From IMG/VR virus record IMGVR_UViG_3300032893_000002, positions 46,668 to 110,667 of that record: a stretch of DNA of 64,000 bases; one strand, written 5' to 3'. This document shows positions 1-19,312 of the stretch, piece after piece. Below the pieces are notes generated by a model, which made no database searches, was not told the origin of the DNA, and saw only the letters and a program-made list of their open reading frames with translations. Position numbers and translations under genes: made by a program. Origin of the DNA: a virus. How positions within the stretch are numbered: the stretch's first letter is position 1; every line of letters begins with the position of its first letter.

Positions 1-212
1 CAAAGCAAATAGCTGCAGCCAGATTTTTGTTATTGGGTTATGATAATAAAAGTATTGCACTGGAATTGGGCATTGCGGTGCGAACTGTGAAAGCATATAT
101 GGCTGCTTTAATGCGCATATTCCATGTTAAAAATCGTATTGCATTAGCTATAGCATTAATGCGAAATCAAGAGTGGAGTGAATTACTTGTCGACTCATCT
201 TCCAGTATATAA
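1..212 (+). CDS. LuxR/GerE-type HTH transcription regulator, 5'-truncated by window edge
   Basis: Reading frame is open from nt 3 with no upstream stop inside the window. C-terminal LuxR-type HTH signature: SIALELGIAVRTVKAYMAALMRIFHVKNRIALA. Confidence 0.55.
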   Translation, partial: KQIAAARFLLLGYDNKSIALELGIAVRTVKAYMAALMRIFHVKNRIALAIALMRNQEWSELLVDSSSSI

Positions 213-498
213 ATTTAAATATGAAGACGCAAGAAGTTTAACGAAGACTGAGCATAACATACTTGCCTTACTTTGTGAAGGAAAGGTTAATCGCGAAATC
301 GCATGCGAACTAAAATGCACTATAGACGCTATTAAGTGTCGCTTACACAAGATATACGATAAAATAGGAATGTCTTCGAGGCTAGAAGCTGCGATATGGT
401 ATGAAACAAATCGCAACAACTTTCGCCCATTTGAAGAGGAAAATAATACAGATGATATCAATTCTTCTGCCGACGAGAAAGCGGCCTGCAAATCTTAG
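178..498 (+). CDS. LuxR-type HTH domain protein
   Basis: HTH block LTKTEHNILALLCEGKVNREIACELKCTIDAIKCRLHKIYDKIGMSSRLEAAIW is typical of the GerE/LuxR family. Start would be GTG; overlaps the preceding gene end. Confidence 0.5.
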   Translation: MNYLSTHLPVYKFKYEDARSLTKTEHNILALLCEGKVNREIACELKCTIDAIKCRLHKIYDKIGMSSRLEAAIWYETNRNNFRPFEEENNTDDINSSADEKAACKS

Positions 499-1165
499 AC
501 GATTAGTTACTTCTATCCGGGAAACATCCGTAACTAATCCCGAGATCGTTGTTTACATCGACGACGATGATAAAGAGTCAATTCCAACAGCTGAAGAACT
601 TAAACTAGTAATTCTCGTTGGCCCAAGAATTATCATGACCGACTATTGGAATAAATGTTATGATGTTTGTTCGGGCGATATTGTCATGCAAATGGGCGAC
701 GATGTGGTATTTAGAACTCCCGGTTGGGATAAAATGGTCGAAGAAGAGTTTGAAAAATGGCCAGATAAACTTATTGTAGTTCATGGTGATGATCTTGATC
801 CAAATTTTAGAAGTAGATTTGGAACACATTCCTGTGTGCATCGAAAATGGGTGGAGACTTTAGGTTATTTTATTCCTCCATTCTTTTCTTCTGATAATGG
901 AGATAGATGGCTGATGGCTGTTGCGGATTTTCTTGATCGTAGAATATTTTTGCCGTTTGTTACTGAGCATATGCATTTTAGGACACAGAAAGCAAAAATG
1001 GATTCTACATATATAGAAAGATTAGAAAGGCACGAAAAAGATAATCCAAATCAGCTCTATATTGATCTGATTGATCGCAGACTTGAAGATGCTGCAAAAA
1101 TTCAGCAAGCAATAGACGAATATGAATCCTGTCAAAAACAAGAAGAAAGTAATATACACGCTTAA
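452..1165 (+). CDS. GT-A fold glycosyltransferase-like protein (paralog 1 of 3)
   Basis: Start at MISILLPTRKRPANLRRL with GAGGAAAA RBS. Motifs LPTRKRP...VVYIDDDD...MGDDVVF (DxD). Paralogous to 17636..18487 and 19309..19977. Confidence 0.5.
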   Translation: MISILLPTRKRPANLRRLVTSIRETSVTNPEIVVYIDDDDKESIPTAEELKLVILVGPRIIMTDYWNKCYDVCSGDIVMQMGDDVVFRTPGWDKMVEEEFEKWPDKLIVVHGDDLDPNFRSRFGTHSCVHRKWVETLGYFIPPFFSSDNGDRWLMAVADFLDRRIFLPFVTEHMHFRTQKAKMDSTYIERLERHEKDNPNQLYIDLIDRRLEDAAKIQQAIDEYESCQKQEESNIHA

Positions 1166-1814
1166 TATCAACTATTCAAAAGATGTCACGAATCTAACTT
1201 ATCCCCTTCTGAGACGATATGCCAAGAAGATAGATGCTGATTTTGAAGTTATTACTTCAAGAAAATTTCCCGATTGGCCTATCGTATACGAAAAACTTCA
1301 AATCTATAACTTAGCCAGAGAACAGAATAGAGAATGGATCTACTATATCGATTCTGATGCTCTAATACATCCTGATTTTTTTGATCTAACAGATCTTGTC
1401 CAAAAAGATACAGTTATTCATACAGGAGCAGATTTTGCTCCTATTCGCTGGAAAATGGACGATTATTTCCGTCGCAACAGACGATATATTGGATCATGCA
1501 ATTGGTTTACAGTTGCTAGTAATTGGTGTTTAGATTTATGGCGTCCTCTAGACGATTTAACCCCAGAGCAAGCACTGGCTAATATTTTTCCAACAATACA
1601 AGAGGCCAAGACAATAATTACTAAAGAACATCTGATAGATGATTATACTCTAAGTAGAAATATTGCTAAGTATGGTCTCTACTTCACATCTGTTGCAGAA
1701 ATCTTAAAGAGAACAGATCCGGGAGGTAATTATTTCTGGCATCAGTATACAATTCCTATAGCTGAGAAAGTTAAAGAGTTAAAACAAATGCTCCAAATAT
1801 GGAATTTGATTTAG
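1122..1814 (+). CDS. Nucleotide-sugar transferase, GMA12/MNN10-like (GT34-like)
   Basis: REWIYYIDSDALIHPDFFDL resembles the EWIWWLDxDALI motif of galactosyl/mannosyl transferases. Confidence 0.4.
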   Translation: MNPVKNKKKVIYTLNINYSKDVTNLTYPLLRRYAKKIDADFEVITSRKFPDWPIVYEKLQIYNLAREQNREWIYYIDSDALIHPDFFDLTDLVQKDTVIHTGADFAPIRWKMDDYFRRNRRYIGSCNWFTVASNWCLDLWRPLDDLTPEQALANIFPTIQEAKTIITKEHLIDDYTLSRNIAKYGLYFTSVAEILKRTDPGGNYFWHQYTIPIAEKVKELKQMLQIWNLI

Positions 1815-2600
1815 ATGGCGAATAATAATAAATTTAATAACTCGACAGGAAATCCTCAGACCTGGACCTGCCCGGATGGTGTTGTTACTGTTATAGTTGA
1901 AGCCTGGGGGGCAGGAGGCGGAGGAGGAGGATCCAATAACAACGCAACTACTGGGTCAGCTAGCGGAGGAGGCGGAGGAAGTTATTCGAGATCTGTTTTA
2001 AATGTAGTTCCAGGAACGAGTTATACGTTTAATATCGGTGCGGGAGGTAACGGAGGTACAGGAGGAAATACTAACGGGAGTAACGGAGGAACAACAGATT
2101 TTAACAATAGTCAGATCACGTGTAATGGAGGTGTAGGGGGACGAAATGGAGCAGTTACAACAGCTGGAAATGCTTTAGGAGGCGCTGTAGGAACAGGAAC
2201 ATTTACATTTAAAGGCGGAAATAGTGGTAACGGTCATACTACGACAGGTAGCGGAGGCGGAGGGGCAGGAGGAGGAAATGCTAACGGAAGCTCAGGCACA
2301 AATCCCGGTGCAGGAGCAGGAGGAACAGCTAATGCTAGTTTTACTCCTGGAGGAAATGGCGGAGGTGGCCGACCTGTAAATAATAACGCCGCTAACGCTG
2401 CTGCAAACGGAGTAATTCCAGGAGGAGGAGGCGGAGGAGCCGGAAGAACAAATAACTCTAACACAAATGCTCCCGGCGGCAATGGCGCAAATGGACAGAT
2501 TATTCTTTGGTGGGTTCAACCTGAATTTTTAGGTACTACATCTAATCCTAAGAATCAAAATGAAATGGGTTACTTACCGATTTCGATAATCGGATATTAA
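1815..2600 (+). CDS. Glycine-rich repeat protein (structural or fiber-like)
   Basis: About 45% Gly with GGxGG, GNGGTGG and PGG repeats. Tight coupling to the next gene (TAAtATG). Confidence 0.45.
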   Translation: MANNNKFNNSTGNPQTWTCPDGVVTVIVEAWGAGGGGGGSNNNATTGSASGGGGGSYSRSVLNVVPGTSYTFNIGAGGNGGTGGNTNGSNGGTTDFNNSQITCNGGVGGRNGAVTTAGNALGGAVGTGTFTFKGGNSGNGHTTTGSGGGGAGGGNANGSSGTNPGAGAGGTANASFTPGGNGGGGRPVNNNAANAAANGVIPGGGGGGAGRTNNSNTNAPGGNGANGQIILWWVQPEFLGTTSNPKNQNEMGYLPISIIGY

Positions 2601-2601
2601 T

Positions 2602-3942
2602 ATGGCAATTGCTCAAGACCATACTACACCTGTTCAGAATATTGTATCAGGAACACCTTTTTCGGTTCCATCAAGTACTGGTAATCTTAGTGTAGTTGCC
2701 TTTATCGGAGGAGCAACTGCCACTATAACTAGTGTTACAGATAACCAGTCTAATGCTTATTATCCAGCTATCACGTTTAATGAAAGCGCTGGAGCGTTCA
2801 TTAACATGGCAATCTGGTATGCTCCCGGAGCAGCGACAGGAATAACGTCAATTACAATTAATTATATAAATGGCGGAGGAGGCAATTACGAAGATGCTGT
2901 TATTTATGATTTTTCTGGAGCGCATCCAACAAACCCTCTTGTAAATGGAGATTATACTGACGATATAGGAACAGGCTCGACTGCTACAACAAATCCTGTT
3001 GGTCCGGCTCTTAGTTATCCTTATGGCGGAGGAGCAGCGCTTTCAATTCTCCACGGCGGAAATGTAAGCTCAGTTGCTTCACCTTATACATTAGATTTTA
3101 AAGGTTCATCAGGATCTGAGGCAGAAGTTGGATTTGCTAGTATGGTATTTGGATCTCCGGGAACATTTGCTCCAAGTTGGACTACAACATCAGGTGCATG
3201 GTTTAGTGTTGTAGTTTTATTTGCTTCTAATACAGGTCCAAATAATCTTAGATTCGCTAAAGGGAAAACAGCTATATTTGGTAATTCGGTTACAACTGCC
3301 AATTCTCTTACTGTTACTAACGGAGATCTTGTAGTAATAGTAGCATCAGCTGATCCAGGTAAATCTTCAATTCCGCCCGCTTTTACAGATAATGTTTCAA
3401 ATTCATATACAACGATTTCTGCTATTAATCCGTATGTGGGAGAAACAAATGATGGAATACTTTTTGCGGGATATGGAATAATTGGTAGTTCAGCAGGAGC
3501 ATGTTTTTGGAATTTTAATCACGATGCAAATGAGGGAAATGTAATATACGTAATAGTAATAACGCCATCAGTAACACCAACGTTTAATGCTATAGGAACA
3601 GGATTTGAAGCCAGTTCTGTAACACACTTTACTGCTGCTTCTTGTTCTCCTACAGCAGGCGATTATCTGTTTGCGGCACTAGCTTCTTATGGAGCAGTTG
3701 CGCCACAAAGTTTTTCTGCAAATGGCAGTTGGATTTTAGGTCCAAATGAAGGCGATGGAACTTACTATATCGACGTAGCAGTTGAATTCCAGCTTAGTGC
3801 TGTAGGCGGTTCTACAACTGATGATTTTACAGCATTATCAGGAACAGGAAATGAAGTAATTTTTTCGTTTAGTTTACCGGCAGGAAGTATTTCGCTTTAT
3901 CCAAATGATATGACACCAGGAACTCTAGTAACTTGGCGATAA
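2602..3942 (+). CDS. Member 1 (two-domain) of tandem paralog family with conserved C-terminal YPNDMTPGTLVTW motif
   Basis: S/T/N/G-rich. Contains the GNLxVV...ITSVxDxxxN core twice. C-terminus LYPNDMTPGTLVTWR is shared with the next four genes. Confidence 0.6.
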   Translation: MAIAQDHTTPVQNIVSGTPFSVPSSTGNLSVVAFIGGATATITSVTDNQSNAYYPAITFNESAGAFINMAIWYAPGAATGITSITINYINGGGGNYEDAVIYDFSGAHPTNPLVNGDYTDDIGTGSTATTNPVGPALSYPYGGGAALSILHGGNVSSVASPYTLDFKGSSGSEAEVGFASMVFGSPGTFAPSWTTTSGAWFSVVVLFASNTGPNNLRFAKGKTAIFGNSVTTANSLTVTNGDLVVIVASADPGKSSIPPAFTDNVSNSYTTISAINPYVGETNDGILFAGYGIIGSSAGACFWNFNHDANEGNVIYVIVITPSVTPTFNAIGTGFEASSVTHFTAASCSPTAGDYLFAALASYGAVAPQSFSANGSWILGPNEGDGTYYIDVAVEFQLSAVGGSTTDDFTALSGTGNEVIFSFSLPAGSISLYPNDMTPGTLVTWR

Positions 3943-3967
3943 AATAATATGGAAAGAGTGTAAGTAG

Positions 3968-4726
3968 ATGGCTTTTATTCATATTCAAGGCGGCACAGCA
4001 AATACAGGAGGAGTTGTTGGAACATCATTCACAATAGTACTATCGAACACTCCGATTGTCGGAAATTTAGTATGCGTAGGGATAGTGTTCATCAATGCAA
4101 CTAATACAAGTCCTGCATCTATATCTATATTAGACGGCAATAATAACAGATATGTTATTACGCCAAATTCACCAGCAGCAGGAACATTTCCAAATGCGGG
4201 TTCAGGCGGCACATCACCTGAGTATGGATGGTTATATCTATGCTATTTCCTCGTAACTGATTTACCTTCTTCGCAAATTATTGTTACATGGGCAAATAGC
4301 ATGTATGCTCAGGGTTGGGCAGAAGAATTTTCTGTTAGTGCAGGCGTTATTAGCTTCGATAAAGATGTTGCTGGAACAGTACAAACTGCATCGGGAACTG
4401 TAGCAAATATTCCTTCAATAACGCCTCTTGCAGCCAATTCACTATTGTACAGTGTTGGATGCGATGATTATAATGGTTTCGTTGCTCCGACAGCAGGAGG
4501 AACACTAGGTGCTTGGATAGGCGGCGCTGGCGGACCCGACTTAGCTATAACGGGAGGCAATACAGAATACGATTTAGCTGCAACAGGATCGACTAGTGTT
4601 AATTACACTTGTGGAGTAAGTGGAGATATTTACATTGCATCTGCAATGTCTTTCTACACTATGCCTACAGAGATTTTTCCTCCAGATATGACACCCGGAA
4701 CTTCCGTAGCTTGGAGGTTCAAATAA
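3968..4726 (+). CDS. Member 2 of tandem paralog family (MAFIHIQGG N-terminus, PPDMTPGTSVAWRFK C-terminus)
   Basis: N-terminus matches member 4. Conserved C-terminal motif. Confidence 0.6.
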   Translation: MAFIHIQGGTANTGGVVGTSFTIVLSNTPIVGNLVCVGIVFINATNTSPASISILDGNNNRYVITPNSPAAGTFPNAGSGGTSPEYGWLYLCYFLVTDLPSSQIIVTWANSMYAQGWAEEFSVSAGVISFDKDVAGTVQTASGTVANIPSITPLAANSLLYSVGCDDYNGFVAPTAGGTLGAWIGGAGGPDLAITGGNTEYDLAATGSTSVNYTCGVSGDIYIASAMSFYTMPTEIFPPDMTPGTSVAWRFK

Positions 4727-4728
4727 AG

Positions 4729-5436
4729 ATGATTACAATAGATGCGATTTCTATTCCGGCTCAATTTGATGCTATCAACCCATCTTTTAATATCACTCCG
4801 ACGAAGGCAAACTGTTTTCTTGTTGTTACATTCGGAATGGCGGGGCCAAACGTAAACATAACTATTTCCTCAGTTATTGATAATGCTTCAGGCGGAACAA
4901 ATTTATATCAACAAGTTCCGGGAGCTTACTCATTTGTTAACGGCGGCGACGGTGAAATTTTCAGTTTTGATATATGGTACTGTTCTAATTCTAAAGCAAA
5001 TGCAAATCAGCTTTCGGCAAATCTTTCTGCAGAAGCTAATACGCAGATTGTTGTGTATCAACTGTATGGTCTGAATTTAGGCGAATCTCCTGAAGCAGCA
5101 GTTGGAATATCTAATGGATCATTTACAGGTTTATCGTCATTTTCAACTCCGCCAATTACGACATCAGCTTTCTCTTCTTTTATTGTTGTAGTAGGCGATG
5201 CTACATGGGGTTTTGCTAAAGTAGCATTACCTTGGTCAGGATTACCTGATGCAAATGGAAACTACCTCGCAACTACTACAGCATACTTAATTACAGATGG
5301 TCCAGGAACTTATATCCCAACTTGGCAAACACAAAATACAAATAACTATGCGATGAGTGGCGCATCGTTTCAAGGTGATCAGATTCTAGCTTTCGATACA
5401 ACACCTGGAACAAATATTGGATGGAGTGTTGAGTAA
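4729..5436 (+). CDS. Member 3 of tandem paralog family (C-terminus DTTPGTNIGWSVE)
   Basis: ATG at 4729 preceded by GGAGG. Core FLVVTFG...ITISSVIDNASGG. Degenerate C-terminal motif. Confidence 0.55.
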   Translation: MITIDAISIPAQFDAINPSFNITPTKANCFLVVTFGMAGPNVNITISSVIDNASGGTNLYQQVPGAYSFVNGGDGEIFSFDIWYCSNSKANANQLSANLSAEANTQIVVYQLYGLNLGESPEAAVGISNGSFTGLSSFSTPPITTSAFSSFIVVVGDATWGFAKVALPWSGLPDANGNYLATTTAYLITDGPGTYIPTWQTQNTNNYAMSGASFQGDQILAFDTTPGTNIGWSVE

Positions 5437-6107
5437 TGGCTTTCGTTCATATACAAGGTGGAATAAGTGGAACAGGATCAGCTATATTGACATTAACAAA
5501 CAATCCCGGACAAGGGAATCTTGTTTGTTTTGGCTATTTGTTTGATACTACTGCTGGTGTCATTACATCAATTGTAGATAGTAATGGGAATCCCTATTCT
5601 ATTGTCACTACGACAGATAGTGAAGTAGTAGGACTTGCATTCTTGCTTAATGCTCCTGCTAATGCCAGCAAAACAATTTTTCTTAACTTTACTGGCAGTC
5701 CTAGTTTTTATGAGGTGTGGGGCGATGAATTTTCGTGCGGAACATCAACAGTATTCGATAATGTTGTGGCTGCTTCAGGAAACGCAGTAGCTGGTATTAT
5801 TAATACACCAGTAATTACTCCAAAACTTTCCGGCGGTGAGTTATTATATAGTTTATGCTCGCCCAATGTTGTTTTAACGGCTCCAGGATTAGGTGTTGTA
5901 TATAACGGATGGACGGGAACTGCGATTGATGCAATATACGGAACAGGAGGAGAATACATACTTAGTGCAAATTCGCCTCAAGCTGTGGCTTATGTTAATA
6001 ACGATCCTACAGGAGCTTATACTGCAATTGCAATGGCTTTTTCAGAAGGACAGATTGCTCCTTCTGATATGACGCCTGGATGTAACTTAGTAATGGAGAT
6101 TGGATAA
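5436..6107 (+). CDS. Member 4 of tandem paralog family (MAFVHIQGG N-terminus, PSDMTPGCNLVMEIG C-terminus)
   Basis: TAATG overlap with upstream gene. Motifs GNLVCFG...ITSIVDSNGN. Confidence 0.6.
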   Translation: MAFVHIQGGISGTGSAILTLTNNPGQGNLVCFGYLFDTTAGVITSIVDSNGNPYSIVTTTDSEVVGLAFLLNAPANASKTIFLNFTGSPSFYEVWGDEFSCGTSTVFDNVVAASGNAVAGIINTPVITPKLSGGELLYSLCSPNVVLTAPGLGVVYNGWTGTAIDAIYGTGGEYILSANSPQAVAYVNNDPTGAYTAIAMAFSEGQIAPSDMTPGCNLVMEIG

Positions 6108-6832
6108 TGGCTGTCGAATTTGACGCAGTTGGACCTAATTCGTCAGGTACAGGCGGAACAGGAGTAAATATAGCTGCAACTCCTATTAATTGGAATCATA
6201 CTTGTTCCGGAACAAATGGATTATTAGTTGTATGTGTTACATATGGAGGAGGAGATAATCCAACATTCTCAGACTTTAGTGTAACATACAATAGTATTCC
6301 TATGCTTCAAGGAGCATTTCAATACAACGCAAATGATGGTACAGATTGTGCGATGCTGTTCTATCTTATTGCGCCCGCATCAGGAACGAATCAAGTTTCT
6401 CTATTTTCTAATTCGGGCTTCCTTTATGGGGATTTTCAGTGTGGATCTGTGAGTTACACAGGTGTAGATCAAATTACAGGGATAAGAAATGCTGTTAGTA
6501 ATGCAAGTTCAGGCGCATCTTCTCCAGCAACATTAACAGTATCAAGTGCTGTAGGGAACATGGTAGCATTTGGTTTAGGGTCAGGTGCATATAGCGGAAC
6601 TTCAAACCAAACGGACAGATGGCAGTTTAATCAAAATGGTGATACGGGCGGAAGCAATGGACTTCAATCTGATGCTCCAGGCGCGGCTTCTGTTTCGTTT
6701 AGCGATTCAATTAATGGCGGTGCAGGTGATTATTGGGGTATTGTAGGATTTGATATAATTGCAGCATCATCGTTATCAATTTATCCTGAAGATATGACGC
6801 CCGGATCAGAAGTAACGTTTAGAATTATTTAA
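6107..6832 (+). CDS. Member 5 of tandem paralog family (C-terminus YPEDMTPGSEVTFRII)
   Basis: TAATG overlap with upstream gene. Same core pattern and C-terminal motif. Confidence 0.6.
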   Translation: MAVEFDAVGPNSSGTGGTGVNIAATPINWNHTCSGTNGLLVVCVTYGGGDNPTFSDFSVTYNSIPMLQGAFQYNANDGTDCAMLFYLIAPASGTNQVSLFSNSGFLYGDFQCGSVSYTGVDQITGIRNAVSNASSGASSPATLTVSSAVGNMVAFGLGSGAYSGTSNQTDRWQFNQNGDTGGSNGLQSDAPGAASVSFSDSINGGAGDYWGIVGFDIIAASSLSIYPEDMTPGSEVTFRII

Positions 6833-9800
6833 TGTACCGTCAATATCAATACGACGTATTTACTGAAGGACTGCCTCCAGCCCCTGAAGTTGTAGAAGCT
6901 AGTAGCTGGGTGCAACCTCAAAGCCAGCCTATCCCGAATAACTTTGTATCGAAGTTGAAGGCTGGTGTAGTAGCTGCTCTCGTCGCTTCAGGAATATTCT
7001 ACACTGCTCTTGCTCCGCAAGTAGTAACAGCTAGCGGAATATCAGCAGACTGTAGCTTCTTTGTAATTAATAGAAGCTATGCTGCGCAAATAGCTTCAGG
7101 TGTATATTCAGTTCCATTCGTTCCGGCGGCAGCGGCAGCAGCAGGCGGATCAGGCGCATCTCAACAACTTCTAAGCTTAAAAGCTAGAGGTACGCAAGCT
7201 CATCTTCAGACAAGTACGTTTTGGAGTGCCTTCACTCCATCTGCACCTTCACAAGGCGGCGGCTTTTCTGCAGAAACAATAAGATTGCGATTCCAGCGAC
7301 GCTTCGCTTCGCAATCTCCAAGCGTTTTCTGGAATACCTTTACTCCAGCAACTGCAATTACTCCTGTAATTGCTCCATGCGCAGAATATCCAGATTCATT
7401 CTATAAGAAACGCTATTTAACAGAAGCACTAGATTCTTCTGATGGACAAGCTGTAATTGGTACTCTTCCTCCTTCGATTCAAACAGCAGTAGGAGGAGCG
7501 CAAGGAAAATCTACAGTAATCCGTATTAATCGCAGTTATGCAGCTCAAATAGCCTCAGGCGAAGTATTTGTTCCTGTTGTTGCAGCTCCGACACCAACTG
7601 GATGGTTAGGAGATCAGAATCAGCTTCCGCGAGGTAAACAATCTCTTGCTGTAGCTGAGCAGCAAGCTGTATTCTTCACTGCTCTTGCTCCGCAAGTAGT
7701 AACAGCTAGCGGAATATCAGCAGACTGTAGCTTCTTTGTAATTAATAGAAGCTATGCGTATACATCACCGTCTGTATTTTGGAATCCTAATACTCCTGTT
7801 TTACCTCCAACTGGATGGTTAGGAGATCAGAATCAGCCTCTTCCAATTAGAAAAGGATTAGCTGCAGGAGCGCAGCAGTATTCTCCTGGTGTTGTTCAAG
7901 CAGGTTCTACTCCAAGTACATTTGGATTAGTATGCGCTGAGAAGCAGCAGGTATCTCAACGATATCTAGCCGCTAATCAACAGGCTGTATTTTATACTTC
8001 TTTTGTTCAAGTATCTGTACTTAACTGGCTGCCTTCATATCCGGATTTCTTTAAACCGAAATTTTCAGCTGGCTTATATATTTATTCAACTCAAGCTAAT
8101 GTTCCGGTAGAACAATTAGCGTCTGCTGATTATCCGGATTGGATTGCTGGGAAGAAGTATTTAACAAGTAATCAACAAGCAGCATTTGGTCCGCTATCTA
8201 CATCTCCTGAAACTGTATTTGTATCAAGTTGGGCGCAACCACAATCCCAACCATATCCATATAGAAGAAGTCTACAAACAGCTCAGCAGATAGCTGTATT
8301 TTGGAATACTTCTACTCAACCTGAAGTCGTAGAAAGTGCTAGCTGGTATCCAACTTATCCGCAGCCTTTCCCGACAAAACCTTATCTCAGTACCGCTTCA
8401 CAGCAATATTATTTCTTCGGTAAACAGGTTGCGCAGGAATATCTTGTAGGAAATACTCCTGTATCGCAGCCAAGCTTTAAGCAAAGAGCAGTTGCTGTTT
8501 ACGAACCAGCTTCTAACTTCATATTTACTCCTGCTCAGACGTTTAATGCATGGCTGCCTGCTTATCCTGATAAAGTTTATAGTAGACCTTATCTCCTTGC
8601 TGCACAACAGCAAGCTGTATTTGGACCTTTATCTACAGATCAAGAAACTGTATTTGTAAGTAGTTACGTACAACCCCAATCACAGCCTTATCCATATAAG
8701 CGCAGTCTACTGACAGCGCAGCAGCAAGCAACATTCTGGAATACAAGTACTGCGACTGAAACAGTATTAGTCAGTTCTTGGGTACAGCCACAATCTCAAC
8801 CATATCCGTATAGAAAAGCTCAACTAACTGCTAATCAGCAGGCTTTGTTCTGGAATACAAGTACTCAGCCTGAAACAGTATTTGAGAGTAGTTGGCAGGG
8901 TGTTCAAAGTCCAGCTCTTCTCAATAGAAAAGTACAGCAGCCCGATTCACTGAGTTTTGTTTCAGATATCAATCTGGCTACAGTAGTTCTTCCAGATAGA
9001 AGAGTTACTGTTCCTGCAATAGCAGTCTATCTACCTTGCTCTACTTGGTTAGCTCAGCCAACAACGCAAGTATTCCTTGATTGGCAACAGCCGCAATCGC
9101 AACCGTTATCTACACGGCGTATACAGCCAGTTGATGTAGTAACAGTCGTTCCTCAGCATATCGGACTAGATTGGCAACCTGTATATCCAGATGCTGTAAT
9201 AGGAAGACGATTCCTTACAGCAGATCAGCAATGGTTGGCCTGGAATACTTCTACTCAGTCCGAAACTGTATTTGAAAGCAGTTGGCAAGGTATCACGTGG
9301 CAACCGTGGCCAGCTAAATGCTATTTATCCGCTGCTCAGCAACAGGCATTCTTCTGGCAACCTAATACTCCAGGCGACTTTACTTTCCTGTTGCATTGGG
9401 AACCGATTTATCCGCAACCTTTCCCAAAGAAACTGTATCCAGCTGCAGCGCAACAACAAGCGGTCTTCTGGAATACATCAACACAGCCTGAAACTGTATT
9501 AGTAAGTTCATGGGTACAGCCTCAAAGTCAGCCTTACCCATATAAACCCTATCGCCCTGCAGCCTTGTATCCATCTGTATTCTGGAATACAAGTACAGCA
9601 CCTGAAACTGTTTTTGTTAGCAGTTACGTACAGCCGCAGACGCAGCCTTATCCTTATAAAAAAGCTATTCAACCCTGCGAACAACTTACATTCGTTTGGG
9701 AAGAAGCAACTGCTGACGAAGTTTCAATAGATTGGGTCCAGCCTCAATCTCAGCCTTATTCTTACAGAAAAGTACTTACTACTGCAGAGCAGCAAGCAAC

Positions 9801-11484
9801 ATTCTGGAATACATCAACAAGTCCAGAAACTGTACTTGTTAGTAGTTGGGTACAACCTATCAGTCAGCCTTATCCGTATACAAAGGCTTTACAGACTGCA
9901 AACCAACAAGCGGCGATTTGGAATATATCGACGCAACCTGAAACAGTATTAGTTTCTAGTTGGGTACAACCTCAAAGTCAACCGTATCCATATAAACGAG
10001 CAGAGTTAACAGCTAATCAACCAGCCGCTTTCTGGAATACATCAACAAGTCCAGAAACGATTACTGTAGATAAATGGCTGCCTGTTTATCCGCAACCATT
10101 TCCTGTTAAACAGTACATATTAACTGCCAATCAACAAGCATTCTTCTGGCAACCAAATACGCCAGGAGATTTTAGCTATTTATACCATTGGGAGCCTGTA
10201 TACCCACAACCGTTCCCGGTAAAGAGATACTTACAGACAGCTAATGTACCAGCATTCTTCTGGAACACATCGACGCAACCGGAAAGTGTACTCGTTTCAA
10301 GTTGGGTACAATCGCAGAGTCAACCATATTCTTACAAGCCGTATCGTCCGGCTTCGTTATACCAGAGCACGTTCTATGCTCCATTCGTATCAGAAAATGT
10401 TCAAGTAAGTAGTTGGGTTCAAGCACAATCACAACCAAGAATTCAACAAACTACTATTGCTTCTCAGACAAGTTTCTTCTGGGGAGAAACAACTTCTGAT
10501 GCGGGAACATGGTATCCTGTCGTTTCACAGCAGCAAGTTAAGATATTTGCGCGTGCTGTATATGAACCTGCTGTTAGCTGGAATCCAAATACTCCAGTTC
10601 AAGTTACCCTTGACTGGCTGGCGGTTTCGGAACAACAGCTAACGAAACGCAACATACAGCAATATGCTTCTGTATTCTGGAATGCATCTACCGCTCCAGA
10701 AACTGTATTTATTTCTAGCTGGGAACCTGTTATTGCGCAACCAGTATTTACAAAACCTGCGCAATATCAAGCATTATTCTGGAGTGGATTTACACCTTCG
10801 CAACAAGTTGTTATACTAGATTGGGATACTGTATATCCGCAACCTGCTAAGCAGAGATTTGCAGCGAGCGTATATTCATATTCGATTCAAATCCATACTC
10901 CAGTTATTCAAATTGCTACGGCTGATTATCCAGACCAAATTCCTGGAAGACAGTATCTTACAGCAAATCAGCAAGCAACGTTCTGGGATCCGAATACAAC
11001 ATTCGGAGAAACTGTACTTGTTAGTAGTTGGGTGCAGCCTCAATCTCAACCGTATCCTTATACGCCATACAGTCCGGCGAGCGTGTATCCTGTTGTCTTC
11101 TGGAATACATCAATTAATCCAGAGACTGTATTTGTATCTAGTTGGATACAGCCAATTGAGCAGCCTTATCCGTTCGTTAAGGCTTTGCAACCAACAGAAC
11201 AATTAACGGCAGTATGGAGTACATTTACTCCGCCGCCACCAGTTGCTCCTGATTTTGGATGGTATCAGCAAGTTGTTCAGCCTTATCCACATTCGCGCTT
11301 CCTAGAAGCCTTACAGCAAAGCGTTACGGGCAGTAACTTCCCATTGCCTAATGCCGTAACGCAATTTGTTCAAGGAACTGGATTCGTAACGCAAGTTGTA
11401 AATGTACAAGGTTCGATAGAAAATACTGCTGCCGCTACTGGATCAATAACGACTATTAGCGGCACGGGGTCAGTAGACCAATAA
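6832..11484 (+). CDS. Giant 1550-aa P/Q/W-rich tandem-repeat protein
   Basis: More than 25 copies of a ~37-aa unit ETVxVSSWVQPQSQPYPYK...LTANQQAxFWNTSTxP. Coupled to the upstream gene by TAATG. Confidence 0.7.
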   Translation: MYRQYQYDVFTEGLPPAPEVVEASSWVQPQSQPIPNNFVSKLKAGVVAALVASGIFYTALAPQVVTASGISADCSFFVINRSYAAQIASGVYSVPFVPAAAAAAGGSGASQQLLSLKARGTQAHLQTSTFWSAFTPSAPSQGGGFSAETIRLRFQRRFASQSPSVFWNTFTPATAITPVIAPCAEYPDSFYKKRYLTEALDSSDGQAVIGTLPPSIQTAVGGAQGKSTVIRINRSYAAQIASGEVFVPVVAAPTPTGWLGDQNQLPRGKQSLAVAEQQAVFFTALAPQVVTASGISADCSFFVINRSYAYTSPSVFWNPNTPVLPPTGWLGDQNQPLPIRKGLAAGAQQYSPGVVQAGSTPSTFGLVCAEKQQVSQRYLAANQQAVFYTSFVQVSVLNWLPSYPDFFKPKFSAGLYIYSTQANVPVEQLASADYPDWIAGKKYLTSNQQAAFGPLSTSPETVFVSSWAQPQSQPYPYRRSLQTAQQIAVFWNTSTQPEVVESASWYPTYPQPFPTKPYLSTASQQYYFFGKQVAQEYLVGNTPVSQPSFKQRAVAVYEPASNFIFTPAQTFNAWLPAYPDKVYSRPYLLAAQQQAVFGPLSTDQETVFVSSYVQPQSQPYPYKRSLLTAQQQATFWNTSTATETVLVSSWVQPQSQPYPYRKAQLTANQQALFWNTSTQPETVFESSWQGVQSPALLNRKVQQPDSLSFVSDINLATVVLPDRRVTVPAIAVYLPCSTWLAQPTTQVFLDWQQPQSQPLSTRRIQPVDVVTVVPQHIGLDWQPVYPDAVIGRRFLTADQQWLAWNTSTQSETVFESSWQGITWQPWPAKCYLSAAQQQAFFWQPNTPGDFTFLLHWEPIYPQPFPKKLYPAAAQQQAVFWNTSTQPETVLVSSWVQPQSQPYPYKPYRPAALYPSVFWNTSTAPETVFVSSYVQPQTQPYPYKKAIQPCEQLTFVWEEATADEVSIDWVQPQSQPYSYRKVLTTAEQQATFWNTSTSPETVLVSSWVQPISQPYPYTKALQTANQQAAIWNISTQPETVLVSSWVQPQSQPYPYKRAELTANQPAAFWNTSTSPETITVDKWLPVYPQPFPVKQYILTANQQAFFWQPNTPGDFSYLYHWEPVYPQPFPVKRYLQTANVPAFFWNTSTQPESVLVSSWVQSQSQPYSYKPYRPASLYQSTFYAPFVSENVQVSSWVQAQSQPRIQQTTIASQTSFFWGETTSDAGTWYPVVSQQQVKIFARAVYEPAVSWNPNTPVQVTLDWLAVSEQQLTKRNIQQYASVFWNASTAPETVFISSWEPVIAQPVFTKPAQYQALFWSGFTPSQQVVILDWDTVYPQPAKQRFAASVYSYSIQIHTPVIQIATADYPDQIPGRQYLTANQQATFWDPNTTFGETVLVSSWVQPQSQPYPYTPYSPASVYPVVFWNTSINPETVFVSSWIQPIEQPYPFVKALQPTEQLTAVWSTFTPPPPVAPDFGWYQQVVQPYPHSRFLEALQQSVTGSNFPLPNAVTQFVQGTGFVTQVVNVQGSIENTAAATGSITTISGTGSVDQ
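7002..7082 (+). repeat. 81-bp direct repeat, copy 1 (identical copy at 7677..7757)
   Basis: Identical nucleotide strings encoding TALAPQVVTASGISADCSFFVINRSYA, 675 bp apart and in frame within the giant repeat gene. Confidence 0.75.
7677..7757 (+). repeat. 81-bp direct repeat, copy 2
   Basis: Same sequence as 7002..7082. Confidence 0.75.
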
Positions 11485-11485
11485 G

Positions 11486-11680
11486 ATGCCAACCTTCGCC
11501 GCTATTTTAGCTGTTCTGGATGCAATGGCTAGAGGAAAACTTACGCTACATCCTTCATTAGAGGGAGCCGTAAGTTTTGTTTATGCTCCGCCATCGCAAA
11601 TCTATGTTCAACAAAGTTATCCGACACAGCAGATTGTTATAGAAGCATCCAGTACGTGCTGTGTGTCGTTTGGAGGGTAG
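11486..11680 (+). CDS. Small hypothetical protein (64 aa)
   Basis: ORF ends with TAG and is followed, in the same frame, by the next gene. No motif recognised. Confidence 0.3.
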   Translation: MPTFAAILAVLDAMARGKLTLHPSLEGAVSFVYAPPSQIYVQQSYPTQQIVIEASSTCCVSFGG

Positions 11681-12097
11681 ATGAAAAGATTTATCATGTT
11701 TGTAGTAATCGTATTCGCAATTTTTTCGTTAGGGGCAGTTCAGCCTAGCATTCTAGGATTACCAAATTCTGTAACAACGTTACCGATAAACGTAAATACT
11801 AGCGGCGATGTACAGCTTATTGCTGCTGTAGCAAACCAAGCGATTTATGTTACGCATTATCATATTGTTTCCAGCGGGACGACTACATTTCAATTTGATT
11901 ATGGTACTGGATCAAATTGTGGCACTGGAACGACTCCAATTGATGGACCAATGTCTTTCATTGCTACAACAGGAATTTCTGCTGGAATAGGTTTCGGTGC
12001 TGTTATTGTTGTACCTCCAGGTAATGCGTTATGTATAAATCTAGGTACTAGTAGCGTACAAGTTGGCGGATCAATTTCGTATCAGCAAGGAAATTAG
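11681..12097 (+). CDS. Secreted or membrane-anchored beta-rich protein
   Basis: N-terminal hydrophobic signal/anchor MKRFIMFVVIVFAIFSLGAV. GGAGGG just upstream. G/S/T-rich body. Confidence 0.4.
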   Translation: MKRFIMFVVIVFAIFSLGAVQPSILGLPNSVTTLPINVNTSGDVQLIAAVANQAIYVTHYHIVSSGTTTFQFDYGTGSNCGTGTTPIDGPMSFIATTGISAGIGFGAVIVVPPGNALCINLGTSSVQVGGSISYQQGN

Positions 12098-12098
12098 T

Positions 12099-12410
12099 AT
12101 GAAATTTCGATATCTACTATTATTTCTATTGCTTAATCAATATTCATTTGCGAGCCGTCAAATAGTTTTAACTTGGAATACCTCCGATGGTGCTATAACA
12201 TATAATATTTATCGAGGAACAGATTGTTCTTCGCTTTCATTAGTATCGACAGGCGTTGCAATTACAACATGGACAGATACAGATGTATTAAGAGGGCAAC
12301 AGTATTGCTATGCTGTTACAGCAGTCAATTCTAATGGAGAAAGCGCATACAGTAATACGTATTTAATTCGTATCCCAATGTCAAATTTAACGATGATGGG
12401 GAGTGGCTAG
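12099..12410 (+). CDS. Secreted fibronectin type III (FN3) domain protein
   Basis: Signal peptide MKFRYLLLFLLL. FN3 signature LTWNTSDGAITYNIYRG...YCYAVTAVNSNGES. AAGGAAA RBS. Confidence 0.55.
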   Translation: MKFRYLLLFLLLNQYSFASRQIVLTWNTSDGAITYNIYRGTDCSSLSLVSTGVAITTWTDTDVLRGQQYCYAVTAVNSNGESAYSNTYLIRIPMSNLTMMGSG

Positions 12411-13392
12411 AATGTCAGCTATAGTTTCACCACCTGTATCATTTACATTTAGAGCTTTACAGCAAGCCCTTCTTAGCTGGACACTTACTGACCAAAATGG
12501 TAATCCCATCTCCGGAGCTACTGTAAATGCAACACTATATGAAAATTTAAATCTTCAAAATCCTACTGACTATCCAGGTACGCCTGTTGCAGGATTTACA
12601 AATGTTAACTTAGTTGAGACTCCAGCAGCTTCCGGAATTTATGTAGCAACTCTTCCTGCTACGATTAATCCAGATCCGGCAACGATGGGATTTATAACTG
12701 TTATTGTTGCGACTTCGGGCAGTACACCTCTTGGTACATGGAATATTCCGACAGTTATAGTCCCAGCTTCAAATACAATCGACTTAACAACTTTAAGCGA
12801 TGTTAAAGCTTGGCTCGGAATTCCCACTGTTAATACAGATAATGACGAAGTAATTCAAGCGTTGATTACAGGATTTAGTCAATACGTTATCAACCGCACT
12901 GGTGTTGCATCATTTAATTCCATCAATCAATATATAGAGATTTACGATGGTAACGGTTCCCAAAGATTATTCTTAAGGAATTATCCAATTACAGCAATTA
13001 TATCTGTGTTGATAGGTTCTTACTCAGTTCCGCTTTCCTCTGCGGTGAATGCGCCAGGAATATTTATAGAGCAACTGAAACGTTCTATTGCATTTAGAGC
13101 CGGCAGCGTAGGTTGGTTTCCATCAGCAGGGTTATTTCCTTATACTTTTGCTCCTGGTATCGGCAATATTCAAGTTACGTATACAGCGGGATTTGCGCAA
13201 GTTCCCTACGATCTACAAGAAGCTTGTTTCAAGGCTGTTGCTATAAATTATACACGAAAGAGTACAATTGATCAAGGCAGTAAAACATTAAGTGCGTCAG
13301 GTGGAGGGACAGGAACCGTTGCATTTAGAGCATGGGCATTGCCCCCAGAAATTGAGCGCGTCATAATGTATTACTCGCGATACGGTAAGTAA
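12403..13392 (+). CDS. Head-tail connector (gp6/HK97-like) domain protein with N-terminal extension
   Basis: LSDVKAWLGIPTVNTDNDEVIQALITGFSQYVINRTG matches the head-tail connector signature (VK..LRID..D..I..LI.AA..Y.E..TGR). Confidence 0.5.
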   Translation: MARMSAIVSPPVSFTFRALQQALLSWTLTDQNGNPISGATVNATLYENLNLQNPTDYPGTPVAGFTNVNLVETPAASGIYVATLPATINPDPATMGFITVIVATSGSTPLGTWNIPTVIVPASNTIDLTTLSDVKAWLGIPTVNTDNDEVIQALITGFSQYVINRTGVASFNSINQYIEIYDGNGSQRLFLRNYPITAIISVLIGSYSVPLSSAVNAPGIFIEQLKRSIAFRAGSVGWFPSAGLFPYTFAPGIGNIQVTYTAGFAQVPYDLQEACFKAVAINYTRKSTIDQGSKTLSASGGGTGTVAFRAWALPPEIERVIMYYSRYGK

Positions 13393-13493
13393 TGATTTTT
13401 AATAAATCCAAATCCAATGATACTCAGACATTCCCGTCGGCCCAGCAACGCGCAATTGGGTAGGTAAACCGGGCTTACTTAAGGTATAAAACA

Positions 13494-13988
13494 ATGTCCT
13501 TTAGACTTGATTTTAATGGATCAGACGTGAAGTTCCTTAACTTCCTAGCAGGATATTCTTCACGTTTGTCAGCTTCATTAGAAGATCGTATGTCGCAGCT
13601 TATGGATAAGCTAAGACAAAAGATTGTAGGCGAAAAGTTAGCCGGAGAATACTTAAATAGAAGAACAGGCAGATTAGCAGATAGCTTTGGAACGCCAGTT
13701 ATTGATCGTAGTAGCGATTCTGTTATTACAGGAGACATTCAAGGTGCGGGCGGAGATGCCTCTTATGGACAGATATATGAAAGAGGCGGAACGTCTGCTT
13801 ATCTTATTCGTCCTGTAAATAAGAAAGCGTTGCTGTTTATGATCGCAGGGAAAGAGCAGTTTGCTCATTTAATACTTCACCCTCCGGCCAAACAACGAGC
13901 TTTTTTAACATCTGCTATTGATGATATGGAAGAAGAATTTCGAGAAGGAATTCGAGAATGTGTAATGGGAGATTTTACAAATGGGTAG
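13494..13988 (+). CDS. Hypothetical, positionally head-tail joining protein
   Basis: Lies between the connector-like gene and the major tail protein. No motif recognised. Confidence 0.3.
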   Translation: MSFRLDFNGSDVKFLNFLAGYSSRLSASLEDRMSQLMDKLRQKIVGEKLAGEYLNRRTGRLADSFGTPVIDRSSDSVITGDIQGAGGDASYGQIYERGGTSAYLIRPVNKKALLFMIAGKEQFAHLILHPPAKQRAFLTSAIDDMEEEFREGIRECVMGDFTNG

Positions 13989-15536: not shown

Positions 15537-16451
15537 TTGGAGGTCATTTTATTGACTACAACACGACTTTCACATAAACAGCTAATCGAAAAAATTCGTA
15601 AAAACTTAACAAATTTCAATCCTGTACAAAAATGCGATCCCAAAAAAGGTAAAACATATGAGGAGTATTATGGACAGGAAGATGCAAAACTTATACGAGA
15701 GAAGATGCGTGATTCGCATCTTGGGCAAGAGCCAGGTAACAAAGGCAAACCTTCTCCATTTAAAAACAAAACTTATGAAGAAATAGGCAGAGGTCCAAGT
15801 CCGTTACTAGGACGCGAGCGACCACAAGAAGATCGAGATAAAATTAGTAAAGGTCATTTACTAAGATTAGGTAAAGATAAACCTTCGGAAGAGCGTGATG
15901 GACCACTCACCAGCAGATGGCGCGAGCAGGTTAAGAAACGAGATAACTATACATGTCAATGCTGTGGAGTTAAGCAAGAAGAATTGCTAAGAATAGTTGG
16001 AGATATTACATCGTGGCTTCATGCGCATCATATAAAATCTTGGGCAGAATTTCCAGAGCTTAGGTTTGAAGTATCAAATGGAATTACGCTTTGTTGGCCT
16101 TGCCACTTAAACGTCGAAGGCAAACAGATTAGCTGTCCAGAGCCGCCTCTGCAACAAGTCAAAGTCAAAAACATCAAGACTAGAGGTAAAACGCTAGAAG
16201 AAGTTTATGGATTAGAACGTGCCGCAGAGATAAAGCAACGGCTAAGGCAAAGTCATTTAGGTAAGCCAACAGGGAGAAAAGGCGTTAAGCGTCCTGGAAT
16301 AGGCGGCCGCAAAAAAGGAAGTATTCCACATAATAAAGGGAAGACGAATATCGAAATTTATGGAGTTGAAAAGGCTAAACAGCTAAGTTTAATTGCTGCA
16401 GAGAATGCGCGAGTAAATAGGAATAGATTAGGTACAGGCATTTTTCAATGA
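15537..16451 (+). CDS. Free-standing HNH homing endonuclease (likely starts at TTG 15552)
   Basis: HNH motif CQCCGVK...HAHHIKSWAEF...NGITLCWPCH. Repeated basic K/R-G modules. Confidence 0.7.
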   Translation: MEVILLTTTRLSHKQLIEKIRKNLTNFNPVQKCDPKKGKTYEEYYGQEDAKLIREKMRDSHLGQEPGNKGKPSPFKNKTYEEIGRGPSPLLGRERPQEDRDKISKGHLLRLGKDKPSEERDGPLTSRWREQVKKRDNYTCQCCGVKQEELLRIVGDITSWLHAHHIKSWAEFPELRFEVSNGITLCWPCHLNVEGKQISCPEPPLQQVKVKNIKTRGKTLEEVYGLERAAEIKQRLRQSHLGKPTGRKGVKRPGIGGRKKGSIPHNKGKTNIEIYGVEKAKQLSLIAAENARVNRNRLGTGIFQ

Positions 16452-17635: not shown

Positions 17636-18487
17636 ATGTCGAAACTATTTCATAAAGAAGTAGCTTTTACAGATCGGCTGTCTATAGTATTTCCAACAAG
17701 GAATAGACCGAATAATATTCGGAGACTTTATCAATCCCTAGTAGATACTTGTACAGTGTTGCCTGAAGTAGTACTTTACATCGATGACGATGATAAAGTC
17801 AGTATGCCGGTAGCTAAGGAGTTAGGCATTGCTGCTATTCAGGGACCGCGACGAATGCTTGCCGAATGTTACAATGAAATAGCTTATACTACATCATCAG
17901 ATTTAATTATGTATGCAGCAGATGATTTAGTATTTAGAACCAAAGATTGGGATTCAGCAGTACGACAGGTATTTAATAGGCAAGAAGATAAAATTCTTGT
18001 TGTACATGGAGACGATAAAAGTCATGGCCATACAGAACATGCTACTCACGGAATTTTACATAGAAGATGGGCAGAAACAGTTGGTTACTTTCTGCCGCCC
18101 TACTTCGGTGCTTGGGTAGACAACTGGATTACTGCTGTAGCAAATGCGCTTGGTCGTCGAGTATATGTTCCGTTTGTTAACGAGCATATGCACTATACCG
18201 TACAGAAAGCGCCGTTAGATGCTACATACGAAGAATCGCGGCCAAGACAGAACGCGGATATAGAAAAGTATAAGAATTTGAAAAATAAACGTCTTGAAGA
18301 TATTCAAAAGCTTTGGGATGTGATGTCTGATAAAACAACATTAACTCCGGTACAGGATATAGTTCATGTTGTTCAAGAACGTAAATCTACAGCGTTAGCT
18401 TGTTGCCCTTCCTGTCAGGCTGTGTGCGTTGTAGTAACAAATGGCAGGAATCAATGTAATCAGTGTGGTAGACAATTTAATCCATAG
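17636..18487 (+). CDS. GT-A fold glycosyltransferase-like protein (paralog 2) with C-terminal zinc ribbon
   Basis: Motifs FPTRNRPNNIRRL...VVLYIDDDD...AADDLVF. C-terminal CCPSC...CNQCG. Confidence 0.5.
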   Translation: MSKLFHKEVAFTDRLSIVFPTRNRPNNIRRLYQSLVDTCTVLPEVVLYIDDDDKVSMPVAKELGIAAIQGPRRMLAECYNEIAYTTSSDLIMYAADDLVFRTKDWDSAVRQVFNRQEDKILVVHGDDKSHGHTEHATHGILHRRWAETVGYFLPPYFGAWVDNWITAVANALGRRVYVPFVNEHMHYTVQKAPLDATYEESRPRQNADIEKYKNLKNKRLEDIQKLWDVMSDKTTLTPVQDIVHVVQERKSTALACCPSCQAVCVVVTNGRNQCNQCGRQFNP

Positions 18488-18490
18488 AAA

Positions 18491-19312
18491 ATGTTTCAGC
18501 ACAAACTTACCTGTCAAAAGTGCGGCTCTACATGCATCGCTCCGCATAGTAATGGAACTAGATGCAATCAATGTGGTTTTCAGATGAAGGGCATTGTTCC
18601 CGGATTTGAACCCCCTAAATACCTGCCCCGAGAACTTCCCAGAAAACAGAACATTCGCAGAAGTTTATCAGATCAAGATAAAGCTGCTTACAAGCAAACA
18701 TGGGAAACACTTAAACACAGTCGAGTAACGATTCGCGAAGATACTTTAAAGGCAAGCATCGTAATTCCGACATATAAACGGCAGCATTCATTATTTTATA
18801 CGTTGGCCTCGATATTAAGTCAAACATATACGAATTTAGAAATTGTAATTATTGATAACGAAAAGAACAGCAATTACAAATTCAGTAATAAAAGAATCAA
18901 GTATTTTCAACATACTGAAGAGCAAGGCGCTTCATATGCCAGGAATAAAGGATTAGAATATGCAACGGGCGATCTAGTCTGTTTTATGGATGACGATGAT
19001 ATAATGTTGCCAGAATATTTAGAAAAGATGGTTGTTCCATTTAGAAATGTAGAAGTTAAATGTGTAAGCTGTAATATTTTATTGGTAGAAAACGAAATTC
19101 CGCCGCATAAGCACTTCTGCACGCCAACGATTCTCATGCGGCGCGAATATGCTACGCCTACATGGGGAAAAGATGGAGCACATGATAGACATTATTTTAA
19201 TTCAATAATCGAGAAGCTGCCGAAAGAATATTACGTAGAAATTGACGATGTACTTGTTCATGCCTACACAGAGAGTGTTGGAGGATTAAGAGGCGCAGGA
19301 GCGGATTTATGA
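18491..19312 (+). CDS. Family 2 glycosyltransferase with N-terminal zinc ribbon
   Basis: GT2 signature ASIVIPTYKR...EIVIIDNE...CFMDDDD. N-terminal CQKCG...CNQCG. Confidence 0.65.
   Translation: MFQHKLTCQKCGSTCIAPHSNGTRCNQCGFQMKGIVPGFEPPKYLPRELPRKQNIRRSLSDQDKAAYKQTWETLKHSRVTIREDTLKASIVIPTYKRQHSLFYTLASILSQTYTNLEIVIIDNEKNSNYKFSNKRIKYFQHTEEQGASYARNKGLEYATGDLVCFMDDDDIMLPEYLEKMVVPFRNVEVKCVSCNILLVENEIPPHKHFCTPTILMRREYATPTWGKDGAHDRHYFNSIIEKLPKEYYVEIDDVLVHAYTESVGGLRGAGADL

Follow-up and report, generated by a model that had tools for sequence, protein, structure and literature searches.

In modular phage receptor-binding proteins, such as the tailspike and tail-fibre anchors, gp38 of T4 and S16 mounted on gp37, and gp24 of Pam3, a constant attachment element carries variable bodies that are exchanged as cassettes between close strains (PMC9608196). 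Here we describe a locus with a similar layout in a 64,000-nucleotide stretch of viral DNA (positions 46,668 to 110,667 of IMG/VR record IMGVR_UViG_3300032893_000002; hereafter the window, whose own numbering we use). The window comes from a phage of soil or peat that is uncultured and is represented in the databases by a 180-kb contig, and by metagenome contigs only. Five tandem genes at 2602-6832, which we call g1 to g5, encode proteins that end in the same 16-residue peptide, termed the tag below. The anchors of modular receptor-binding proteins are N-terminal folded domains, whereas the element at this locus is a short C-terminal peptide on up to five small proteins per genome.

Two further systems invite comparison. 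In the cellulosome, many subunits share one short C-terminal module, the dockerin, and are served by one large repeat protein, scaffoldin. This is an analogy only: dockerins are calcium-binding domains of about 70 amino acids (aa) with no sequence or fold relation to the tag, and binding between the tag and a repeat protein is putative. The T4 capsid targeting sequence and the phage-encoded cargo of the type IX secretion system (T9SS), which is marked by a C-terminal domain (CTD; PMC7468147), likewise combine a short conserved signal with hypervariable proteins and a plastic locus. The T9SS CTD is a domain of 70-100 aa, unlike the tag of the window.

The original prediction for this DNA described five coupled paralogs and suggested that their common C-terminal peptide is a docking, processing or export signal. 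In our analysis, the best explanation of the array is a locus of hypervariable cassettes within the late structural operon of a large siphophage of the lambda-J type. On balance, the sequence comparisons favour the tag as a docking peptide, by which interchangeable bodies of an adhesin-like kind would be mounted on one shared partner in the virion. The most likely partner is the giant repeat protein whose gene lies directly downstream.

Results

Five coupled genes with a common C-terminal tag

All five genes lie on the plus strand. The first, g1 (2602-3942, 446 aa), ends in ...SLYPNDMTPGTLVTWR (about 3895-3939), and g2 (3968-4726, 252 aa) ends in ...IFPPDMTPGTSVAWRFK (about 4673-4723). They are followed by g3 (4729-5436, 235 aa; ...ILAFDTTPGTNIGWSVE, about 5383-5433), whose ATG start at 4729 matches the public gene call, g4 (5436-6107, 223 aa; ...IAPSDMTPGCNLVMEIG, about 6054-6104) and g5 (6107-6832, 241 aa; ...SIYPEDMTPGSEVTFRII, about 6779-6829). 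TAATG overlaps join g3 to g4, g4 to g5 and g5 to the next gene, and spacers of 2 nt and 25 nt separate g2 from g3 and g1 from g2, so that the predicted chain of plus-strand open reading frames (ORFs) with overlapping junctions is real. Minus-strand ORFs across the array region are all short, and Rfam and tRNA scans of this region gave no match. Terminator-like sites in 1-13500 showed no excess (12 versus 10.2 expected from shuffles).

Across the six-frame translation of the 64-kb window, the pattern D[MT]TPG[STC]x[VIL]x[WFM] has exactly five matches, where 5e-5 would be expected. There is one match in each of g1 to g5, always 6-8 residues ahead of the stop. The conserved C-terminal motif that had been noticed on all five genes is thus real and, within the window, confined to their ends, and it is the only feature that is certainly common to all of them. 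From 22 instances at nine sampled loci we derived the 16-residue consensus I-[YF]-P-x-D-M-T-P-G-[TS]-x-V-x-W-[RE]-x, in which P and G never vary, with D found in 20 of the 22 and T likewise in 20. A linker of 3-8 residues joins body to tag, and the protein ends 1-4 residues past the Trp, with no hydrophobic helix.

We found that the five window tags differ from each other at synonymous sites, and the peptide is therefore under selection and not merely recently copied. This comparison indicates that purifying selection acts on the tag peptide; because of the same differences, we rejected the idea that the tags are alike through recent gene conversion alone. The 3' end of the tag is also dual-coding, because the GGAG Shine-Dalgarno sequence of the next gene sits inside the last tag codons at three of the four internal junctions. 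It is held by the tag-end codons TGGAGG, TGGAGT and ATGGAG of g2, g3 and g4 (4712-4728, 5422-5435 and 6093-6106, respectively).

The tag in a sister strain and on other bodies

A metagenome scan with the tag pattern recovered a sister strain, L013, whose flanks share 79-95% nucleotide identity with the window (blastn). A scan of IMG/VR for the tag gave no match. Relative to the window, the end of g1 is homologous in L013 (79%) and g3 is kept (91%; the protein orthologue is 89% identical). In place of the g2 body, L013 encodes an unrelated one of 201 aa (family hidden Markov model (HMM) p ~0.05-0.1; hhalign probability 0.2%) with the exact tag of g2, ending in ...IFPTDMTPGTSVAWRFK, and homology restarts at window position 4673, the first codon of the g2 tag. 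L013 is without g4; the last 47 nt of that gene, its tag (window 6059-6105), are fused to the g5 body at 96% nucleotide identity. The recombination breakpoints between window and L013 fall inside the tag.

L013 also has a 3.3-kb insertion. It encodes a protein of 104 aa, a phosphoesterase that looks secreted and a further unrelated body, of 400 aa, ending in ...FPSDMTPGTFVDWKIF; the gene for the giant repeat protein comes directly after it. The phosphoesterase gene (L013 2992-4533) lies inside the tag array and specifies a 513-aa protein of the Phosphoesterase family with a signal peptide (PF04185, E 1e-45). In L017 and L020, the tag is borne by yet another body type, of 112 aa. Because both the L013 bodies and the 112-aa type carry the tag, at least 4-5 unrelated or unrecognisably diverged bodies share this peptide. 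Furthermore, none of eight tagged members of the core family described below has a tagged member among its four nearest cores, indicating that the tag is not inherited with the body. Together, these comparisons indicate that the tag is portable and that recombination occurs at it. They strongly support the earlier view of a short C-terminal peptide as a shared signal on variable bodies, which draws on the unrelated bodies in the sister strain, on the breakpoints inside the tag and on conservation of the motif in related genomes, where we found it in eight lineages.

These observations bear on two alternatives. If the tag were an intrinsic folding or oligomerisation element, for example a strand swapped in a trimer, it would have no common partner and should co-evolve with its own body. 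One tag on unrelated bodies of 112-446 aa, its survival through body swaps, and close core relatives with quite different tags or none make such an element unlikely. The second alternative is that tag conservation reflects a nucleic-acid constraint only, such as a ribosome-binding site, a coupling element or a recombination site. The GGAG sequences within the last tag codons and the breakpoints in the tag are consistent with this idea. However, the best-conserved residues, D-M-T-P-G, lie 25-40 nt upstream of the next start and outside the GGAG sites, and synonymous sites vary; a pure ribosome-binding or coupling artefact was rejected on these grounds. The peptide is also kept where the giant protein is only 29-39% identical, and in genes without a directly following gene start (g1 and a 437-aa gene of L017). 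We therefore regard a constraint at the nucleic-acid level only as highly improbable.

The core family and its members

The original prediction held that all five proteins are paralogs with a core of about 200 aa. We found 33% identity between g2 and g4 from end to end (blastp E 4e-20); they begin with MAFIHIQGG and MAFVHIQGG, as had been pointed out. With a leave-out family profile, built without any window sequence and compared with shuffles (best of 300, 5.5 bits), scores were 217 bits for g2, 187 bits for g4 and 26 bits for the C-terminal half of g1. When the N-terminal half was combined with the L004 orthologue of g1, it matched the family in hhalign (probability 96.7%, E 4e-10). Since both halves match the family profile, g1 holds the core twice, in line with the prediction, and two-domain tagged orthologues of g1 are present in L004, L017 and L018. 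For g5, a match (hhalign probability 81%, E 1e-5) was obtained only when it was grouped with L011_230, to which it is related by blastp (E 5e-16). g3 did not stand out from shuffles: the leave-out HMM gave it -2.8 bits, where the best shuffle reached 8.2, and its hhalign probability was 7.8%. These results clearly point to an all-beta core of about 215 aa that is common to g1 (two domains), g2 and g4, the latter two being canonical members, and g5 is probably a divergent member that carries it as well. The claim of five paralogs thus stands for g1, g2 and g4 and likely for g5, but not demonstrably for the body of g3.

A word-indexed search of 5.8 billion proteins returned four non-self relatives, from which the core would seem an orphan. 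An exhaustive search with a HMMER profile, run over 1.84 billion cluster representatives, overturned this: 734 of them matched at E<=1e-3, 386 at 1e-10 and 92 at 1e-30. Most family members are stand-alone proteins of 220-250 aa and some are two-domain proteins like g1. A few longer ones join the core to a right-handed beta-helix/NosD/DUF5123 region (P0052) or to NHL/beta-propeller repeats (P0143, from an Acidobacteriaceae metagenome-assembled genome (MAG)). In an alignment of 114 members, the hallmarks are an N-terminal M[AG]FTH[VI]QG, PxxGNLVCV, VxDxNxNxY, the invariant Trp183 and a last strand WxAMAMAF; they are present in g2 and g4, partial in g1, and largely absent from g3 and g5. The family's conserved D/N/E/H residues are lost in g1, g3 and g5, and an enzymatic core was rejected for this reason.

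The family had not been recognised in the original prediction, and our searches bear this out. Scans of g1 to g5 with Pfam, PHROGs and NCBIfam gave no model match, Pfam matched none of the 114 aligned members, and the family profile had no relative among Protein Data Bank (PDB) sequences. No match was found by blastn or tblastn against 50,697 phage records, nor by tblastn of one family member against the same records. Named members are all called 'hypothetical protein'.

Fold and structural relatives

The AlphaFold2 (AF2) model of g2, made with the 114-sequence alignment (pLDDT 93.8, pTM 0.90), shows residues 1-232 as an all-beta sandwich. The N-terminus forms the first core strand (residues 3-12), and there is no separate conserved N-terminal attachment domain. 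Searching BFVD with this model, Foldseek found 53 matches at E<=1e-3 with a full-length TM of 0.5-0.67, namely uncharacterised Caudovirales proteins of the same size and Mycobacterium phage minor tail proteins. Those of Shauna1, Tonenili, Hawkeye, Tweety and Stubby had a Foldseek probability of 1.00 and a TM of 0.50-0.56 to g2. Among solved lectin, carbohydrate-binding module and tail-fibre head structures, we found no close match over most of the domain.

The closest described proteins are the actinobacteriophage minor tail proteins (~200-320 aa; Tweety gp21, A5YJY9) and uncharacterised Caudovirales proteins of ~220-260 aa (Synechococcus phage S-CBWM1 A0A3G1L3M3), which match the g2 model in fold at E 6e-8 to 1e-4. 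Residues 118-292 of Tweety gp21 are collinear with the family profile, including the last strand 'GTWAAMAV', at an hhalign probability of only 12.5% (E 2e-3, 167 columns). None of these proteins is known to have a DMTPG tag or a paired giant repeat protein, and their function is uncharacterised. Judged from the model, the core is a widespread unnamed phage domain that shares its fold with annotated minor tail proteins.

A giant repeat protein accompanies the tag

Directly downstream of g5, and overlapping it by TAATG, a plus-strand gene at 6832-11484 encodes a giant protein of 1550 aa (start MYRQYQYD), which is our candidate docking partner. It contains 12 copies of ...STxPETVxVSSWVQPQSQPYPYK... 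with a period of 38 aa (114 nt). Pfam, PHROG and NCBIfam scans of the giant, and an IMG/VR scan for its N-terminus, gave no match. Homologues are 72, 39, 34, 32 and 29% identical, and a scan with the giant alignment added only L023, which is the same contig as L017. We found that eight of eight lineages with a giant homologue (window/L001, L013, L004, L011, L017, L018, L019 and L020) have 1-5 DxxPG-tagged genes just upstream of it. The L019 contig, for example, opens with ...FPGDMTPGSEIIWRFI and a stop, and the giant follows directly. In four lineages with other tag classes, the giant motif was found in none.

The best conserved feature of the giant across lineages is the WxQPxSQP unit, and its repeats number 5-12. 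Loci with more repeats also have more tagged genes (rho 0.95), which is only a hint, as it comes from five complete, non-independent loci with approximate regex counts. The giant also keeps P-Y-P-Y-K/R in most of its repeats; the sister lineages L004, L011, L017 and L018 encode GT_PLOD-type glycosyltransferases, and a 2OG-Fe(II) oxygenase is encoded upstream in L001 (1-651). Collagen-style hydroxylation and glycosylation of the giant is conceivable.

A second tag on one protein in most lineages

Immediately upstream of g1, a plus-strand gene at 1815-2600 encodes a 261-aa adhesin-like protein of the Gly_rich_2 type (PF21722, E 8.5e-17; tail-fibre phrog_863, 356 and 6202). It ends in a second tag, ...LPISIIGY-COOH. 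We found this ending, ...P(I/V)x(x)I(I/V)(G/P/D)Y-COOH, on one protein in six of the eight lineages, and the bodies differ. In the window it is the glycine-rich protein, L004 and L020 have sandwiches of the core family, and L011, L018 and L017 have proteins of 425 aa, 242 aa and 58 aa, respectively. None was seen in L013 or L019, both short contigs. In Pam3 gp24 and S16 gp38, the tips that bind the receptor are glycine-rich domains of broadly this kind (PMC9608196), so that the adhesin type of the modular receptor-binding proteins also occurs in the window module.

Neighbouring genes and the modification and targeting alternatives

At the head of the module, upstream of the array, lie two GerE regulators, two plus-strand glycosyltransferase genes (401-1165, GT2, and 1122-1814; Pfam Glycos_transf_2 E 1.4e-5) and the gene for the Gly_rich_2 protein. 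GT2 or GT_PLOD genes are also found upstream of the arrays in L004, L011, L017 and L018, and a homologue of the second glycosyltransferase follows the tagged genes in L012. Every longer locus of the clade (these five and the window) thus has glycosyltransferase genes, and glycosyltransferase-like genes also follow family members in L014 and L016. This raises the question of whether the tag is what a modifying enzyme encoded in the module recognises, and so a modification or processing signal. The enzyme could be a protease or a glycosyltransferase that acts on Thr/Ser of D-M-T-P-G-T/S; that the proteins are substrates of the neighbouring glycosyltransferases had been suggested. The T-P and the second S/T do occupy conserved tag positions. 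However, L004 has Ala or Cys where the Thr would be, and some copies have Cys or Gly in place of the second S/T, which leaves the suggestion with the presence of the enzymes on its side and the loss of their would-be acceptor against it. The invariant P-G and the hydrophobic V-x-W are more typical of a turn and a strand in a structure than of a sequon, the glycosyltransferases could equally modify the giant or other virion parts, and no protease motif was seen. We give this alternative a small chance. Three more glycosyltransferase genes lie at 17636-19977, between the tail-tube-like and tape-measure-like genes.

Downstream of the giant, the neck and tail genes start with a plus-strand head-tail adaptor or connector gene at 12403-13392 (phrog_442, E 4e-20). 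A PF24163 (HCP) match falls on the orthologous post-giant gene in L017, L018 and L019. Further downstream are a tail completion protein, a tube-like protein, a distal tail protein, a tape-measure-like gene (20753-29056, 2767 aa) and a lambda-J-like gene (31831-37290, 1819 aa) whose relatives are annotated 'host specificity' or 'tip attachment'. The array thus adjoins head and neck genes, a position that would also suit a targeting signal, which might direct the bodies into the capsid for ejection, as in T4, or to export by the host, as in T9SS. The logic is the same, in that the cargo varies, the signal is short and constant and the locus is hyperplastic, and variable T9SS cargo encoded by phages has been described (PMC7468147). 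On the other side, the tag has only 16 aa, and Pfam and NCBIfam scans of g1 to g5 found no T9SS CTD, PEP-CTERM, LPXTG or GlyGly-CTERM sorting-domain match; an identity of the tag with T9SS or another sorting domain was rejected on this basis. The bodies resemble external minor tail proteins and lectin-type sandwiches, and the tag tracks a phage-encoded giant protein of structural type, not a host system. The capsid targeting sequence of T4 internal proteins is N-terminal and cleaved, unlike the C-terminal tag of the window. Targeting by the tag therefore seems quite improbable to us. Among the functions that the original prediction offered, docking of alternative binding or decoration proteins fits best, and export or processing is without positive support.

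Some other features of the window were recorded. Between the giant and the head-tail adaptor, 11681-12097 encodes a 138-aa protein with a hydrophobic signal-like N-terminus (MKRFIMFVVIVFAIFSLGAV...), which is kept in L013; an fn3 protein also lies in this interval (11681-12410). Directly after the J-like protein, in the tail-tip region, 37606-40266 holds a second duplicated pair, tandem paralogs of 447 and 438 aa that both match phrog_2448. HNH/homing endonuclease genes interrupt the structural operon, for example at 15537-16451 and 29056-29628. On the minus strand, one ORF (52061-53668) combines a QueE-like radical SAM region (aa 329-534) with an HNH endonuclease region (aa 125-300). Also on the minus strand, an Rfam tRNA match at 46497-46600 (59 bits, 104 nt against a 71-nt model), which ARAGORN does not call, may represent a tRNA gene that contains about 33 nt of inserted or intron sequence.

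Other tags in other phages

Family members from other phages also have recurrent tails after the last core strand. We distinguished the classes PIYMIA(R/K/N), (W)LGGD(E/D)Y, QxQLVVG, DP(T/I)VSVW, LLGVG, WWQMPPxxQG, NKPHVQMF and ...I(I/V)GY. In L010, two tandem genes with barely related bodies end in a common ...MPV(F/M)F(Q/L)G tag. From the recurrent tails and the L010 pair, a core with a lineage-specific C-terminal tag looks general in the family. The same architecture with a different tag and a different repeat protein is found in L022 (801-3901), from the Terriglobia MAG contig JBGQDM010000177.1: a Zn-ribbon protein is followed by a two-domain family protein ending in ...GNSVSY, and then by a repeat protein with FVTQPLTKVPT..YDWLPNIAP repeats. 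L022 and P0143 give hints of Acidobacteriota hosts.

Elsewhere, family members are encoded after a collagen-like tail-fibre gene (L006) or after very large proteins (L010, L014 and L016). In L014 (5961-9477) and L016 (1234-5958), the family member ends in ...PIYMIA(N)/PIYMLALG, and neighbouring tail proteins have similar hydrophobic-Gly ends (...VFMLMGA, ...IFQLMGA, ...WTALVGS, ...WMAIIGT), which suggests a shared style of C-terminal docking there too.

Discussion

We propose that each cassette of the array would consist of a compact all-beta, lectin- or adhesin-like body, mostly from one unnamed beta-sandwich family, followed by a linker and the tag. The tag, probably as a short hairpin or strand, would insert into its partner and so fix whatever body it bears to one common type of site on the virion. 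The 5-12 conserved WxQPxSQPYPYK repeats of the giant could supply many equivalent sites of this type, and a fibre-like scaffold would thus display mixed, exchangeable binding modules; the second tag, ...P-x-x-I-I-G-Y-COOH, would occupy a unique site. An adhesin or surface character of the bodies is suggested by the beta-sandwich with a free tail, the fold matches to minor tail proteins, the beta-helix and NHL fusions, the tail-fibre context and the glycine-rich protein in the IIGY slot.

Several observations weigh against docking. The eight lineages all come from a single phage clade, so that the co-occurrence of giant and tag is confounded by shared ancestry. AF2 gives the tail of g2 no structure (residues 233-252 are coil, pLDDT 64-70). 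Phage receptor-binding proteins are usually anchored by the N-terminus, which a conserved C-terminal anchor would reverse. Finally, the array lies upstream of the head-tail adaptor and not after the tape-measure and J-like genes; minor tail proteins of the Tweety gp21 type, the fold relatives, belong to the block after the tape measure. Because the module adjoins the neck genes and not that block, the attachment site might lie on neck, capsid or tail.

A more specific version of the docking proposal would be a 'scaffoldin-like' fibre, in which each repeat of the giant binds one DMTPG module, one IIGY adhesin caps a unique site, and other phages use other pairs of tag and repeat. Recombination would then swap adhesins through a peptide-in-repeat docking code, with L022 as a second tag/repeat pair. 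We put this forward tentatively, as a possibility that we consider clearly less probable than docking as such. In the literature, we found no description of a portable 16-residue C-terminal tag, of its strict pairing with a giant and a second tag, or of the alternative tag classes.

If docking is true, the tag would be a minimal handle, of 16 residues, for attaching unrelated proteins to a phage particle, which would be of direct use in phage display and host-range engineering. Recombination at the tag would then account for the reshuffling of surface modules among soil phages that are otherwise nearly identical. The tag would also provide a first functional handle on hundreds of protein clusters without a Pfam entry and on giant repeat proteins, all annotated as hypothetical. 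The alternative recurrent tags in the wider family suggest that the principle is general, and the scaffoldin-like arrangement, if true, would represent a hitherto undescribed plug-and-socket system for phage surface proteins.

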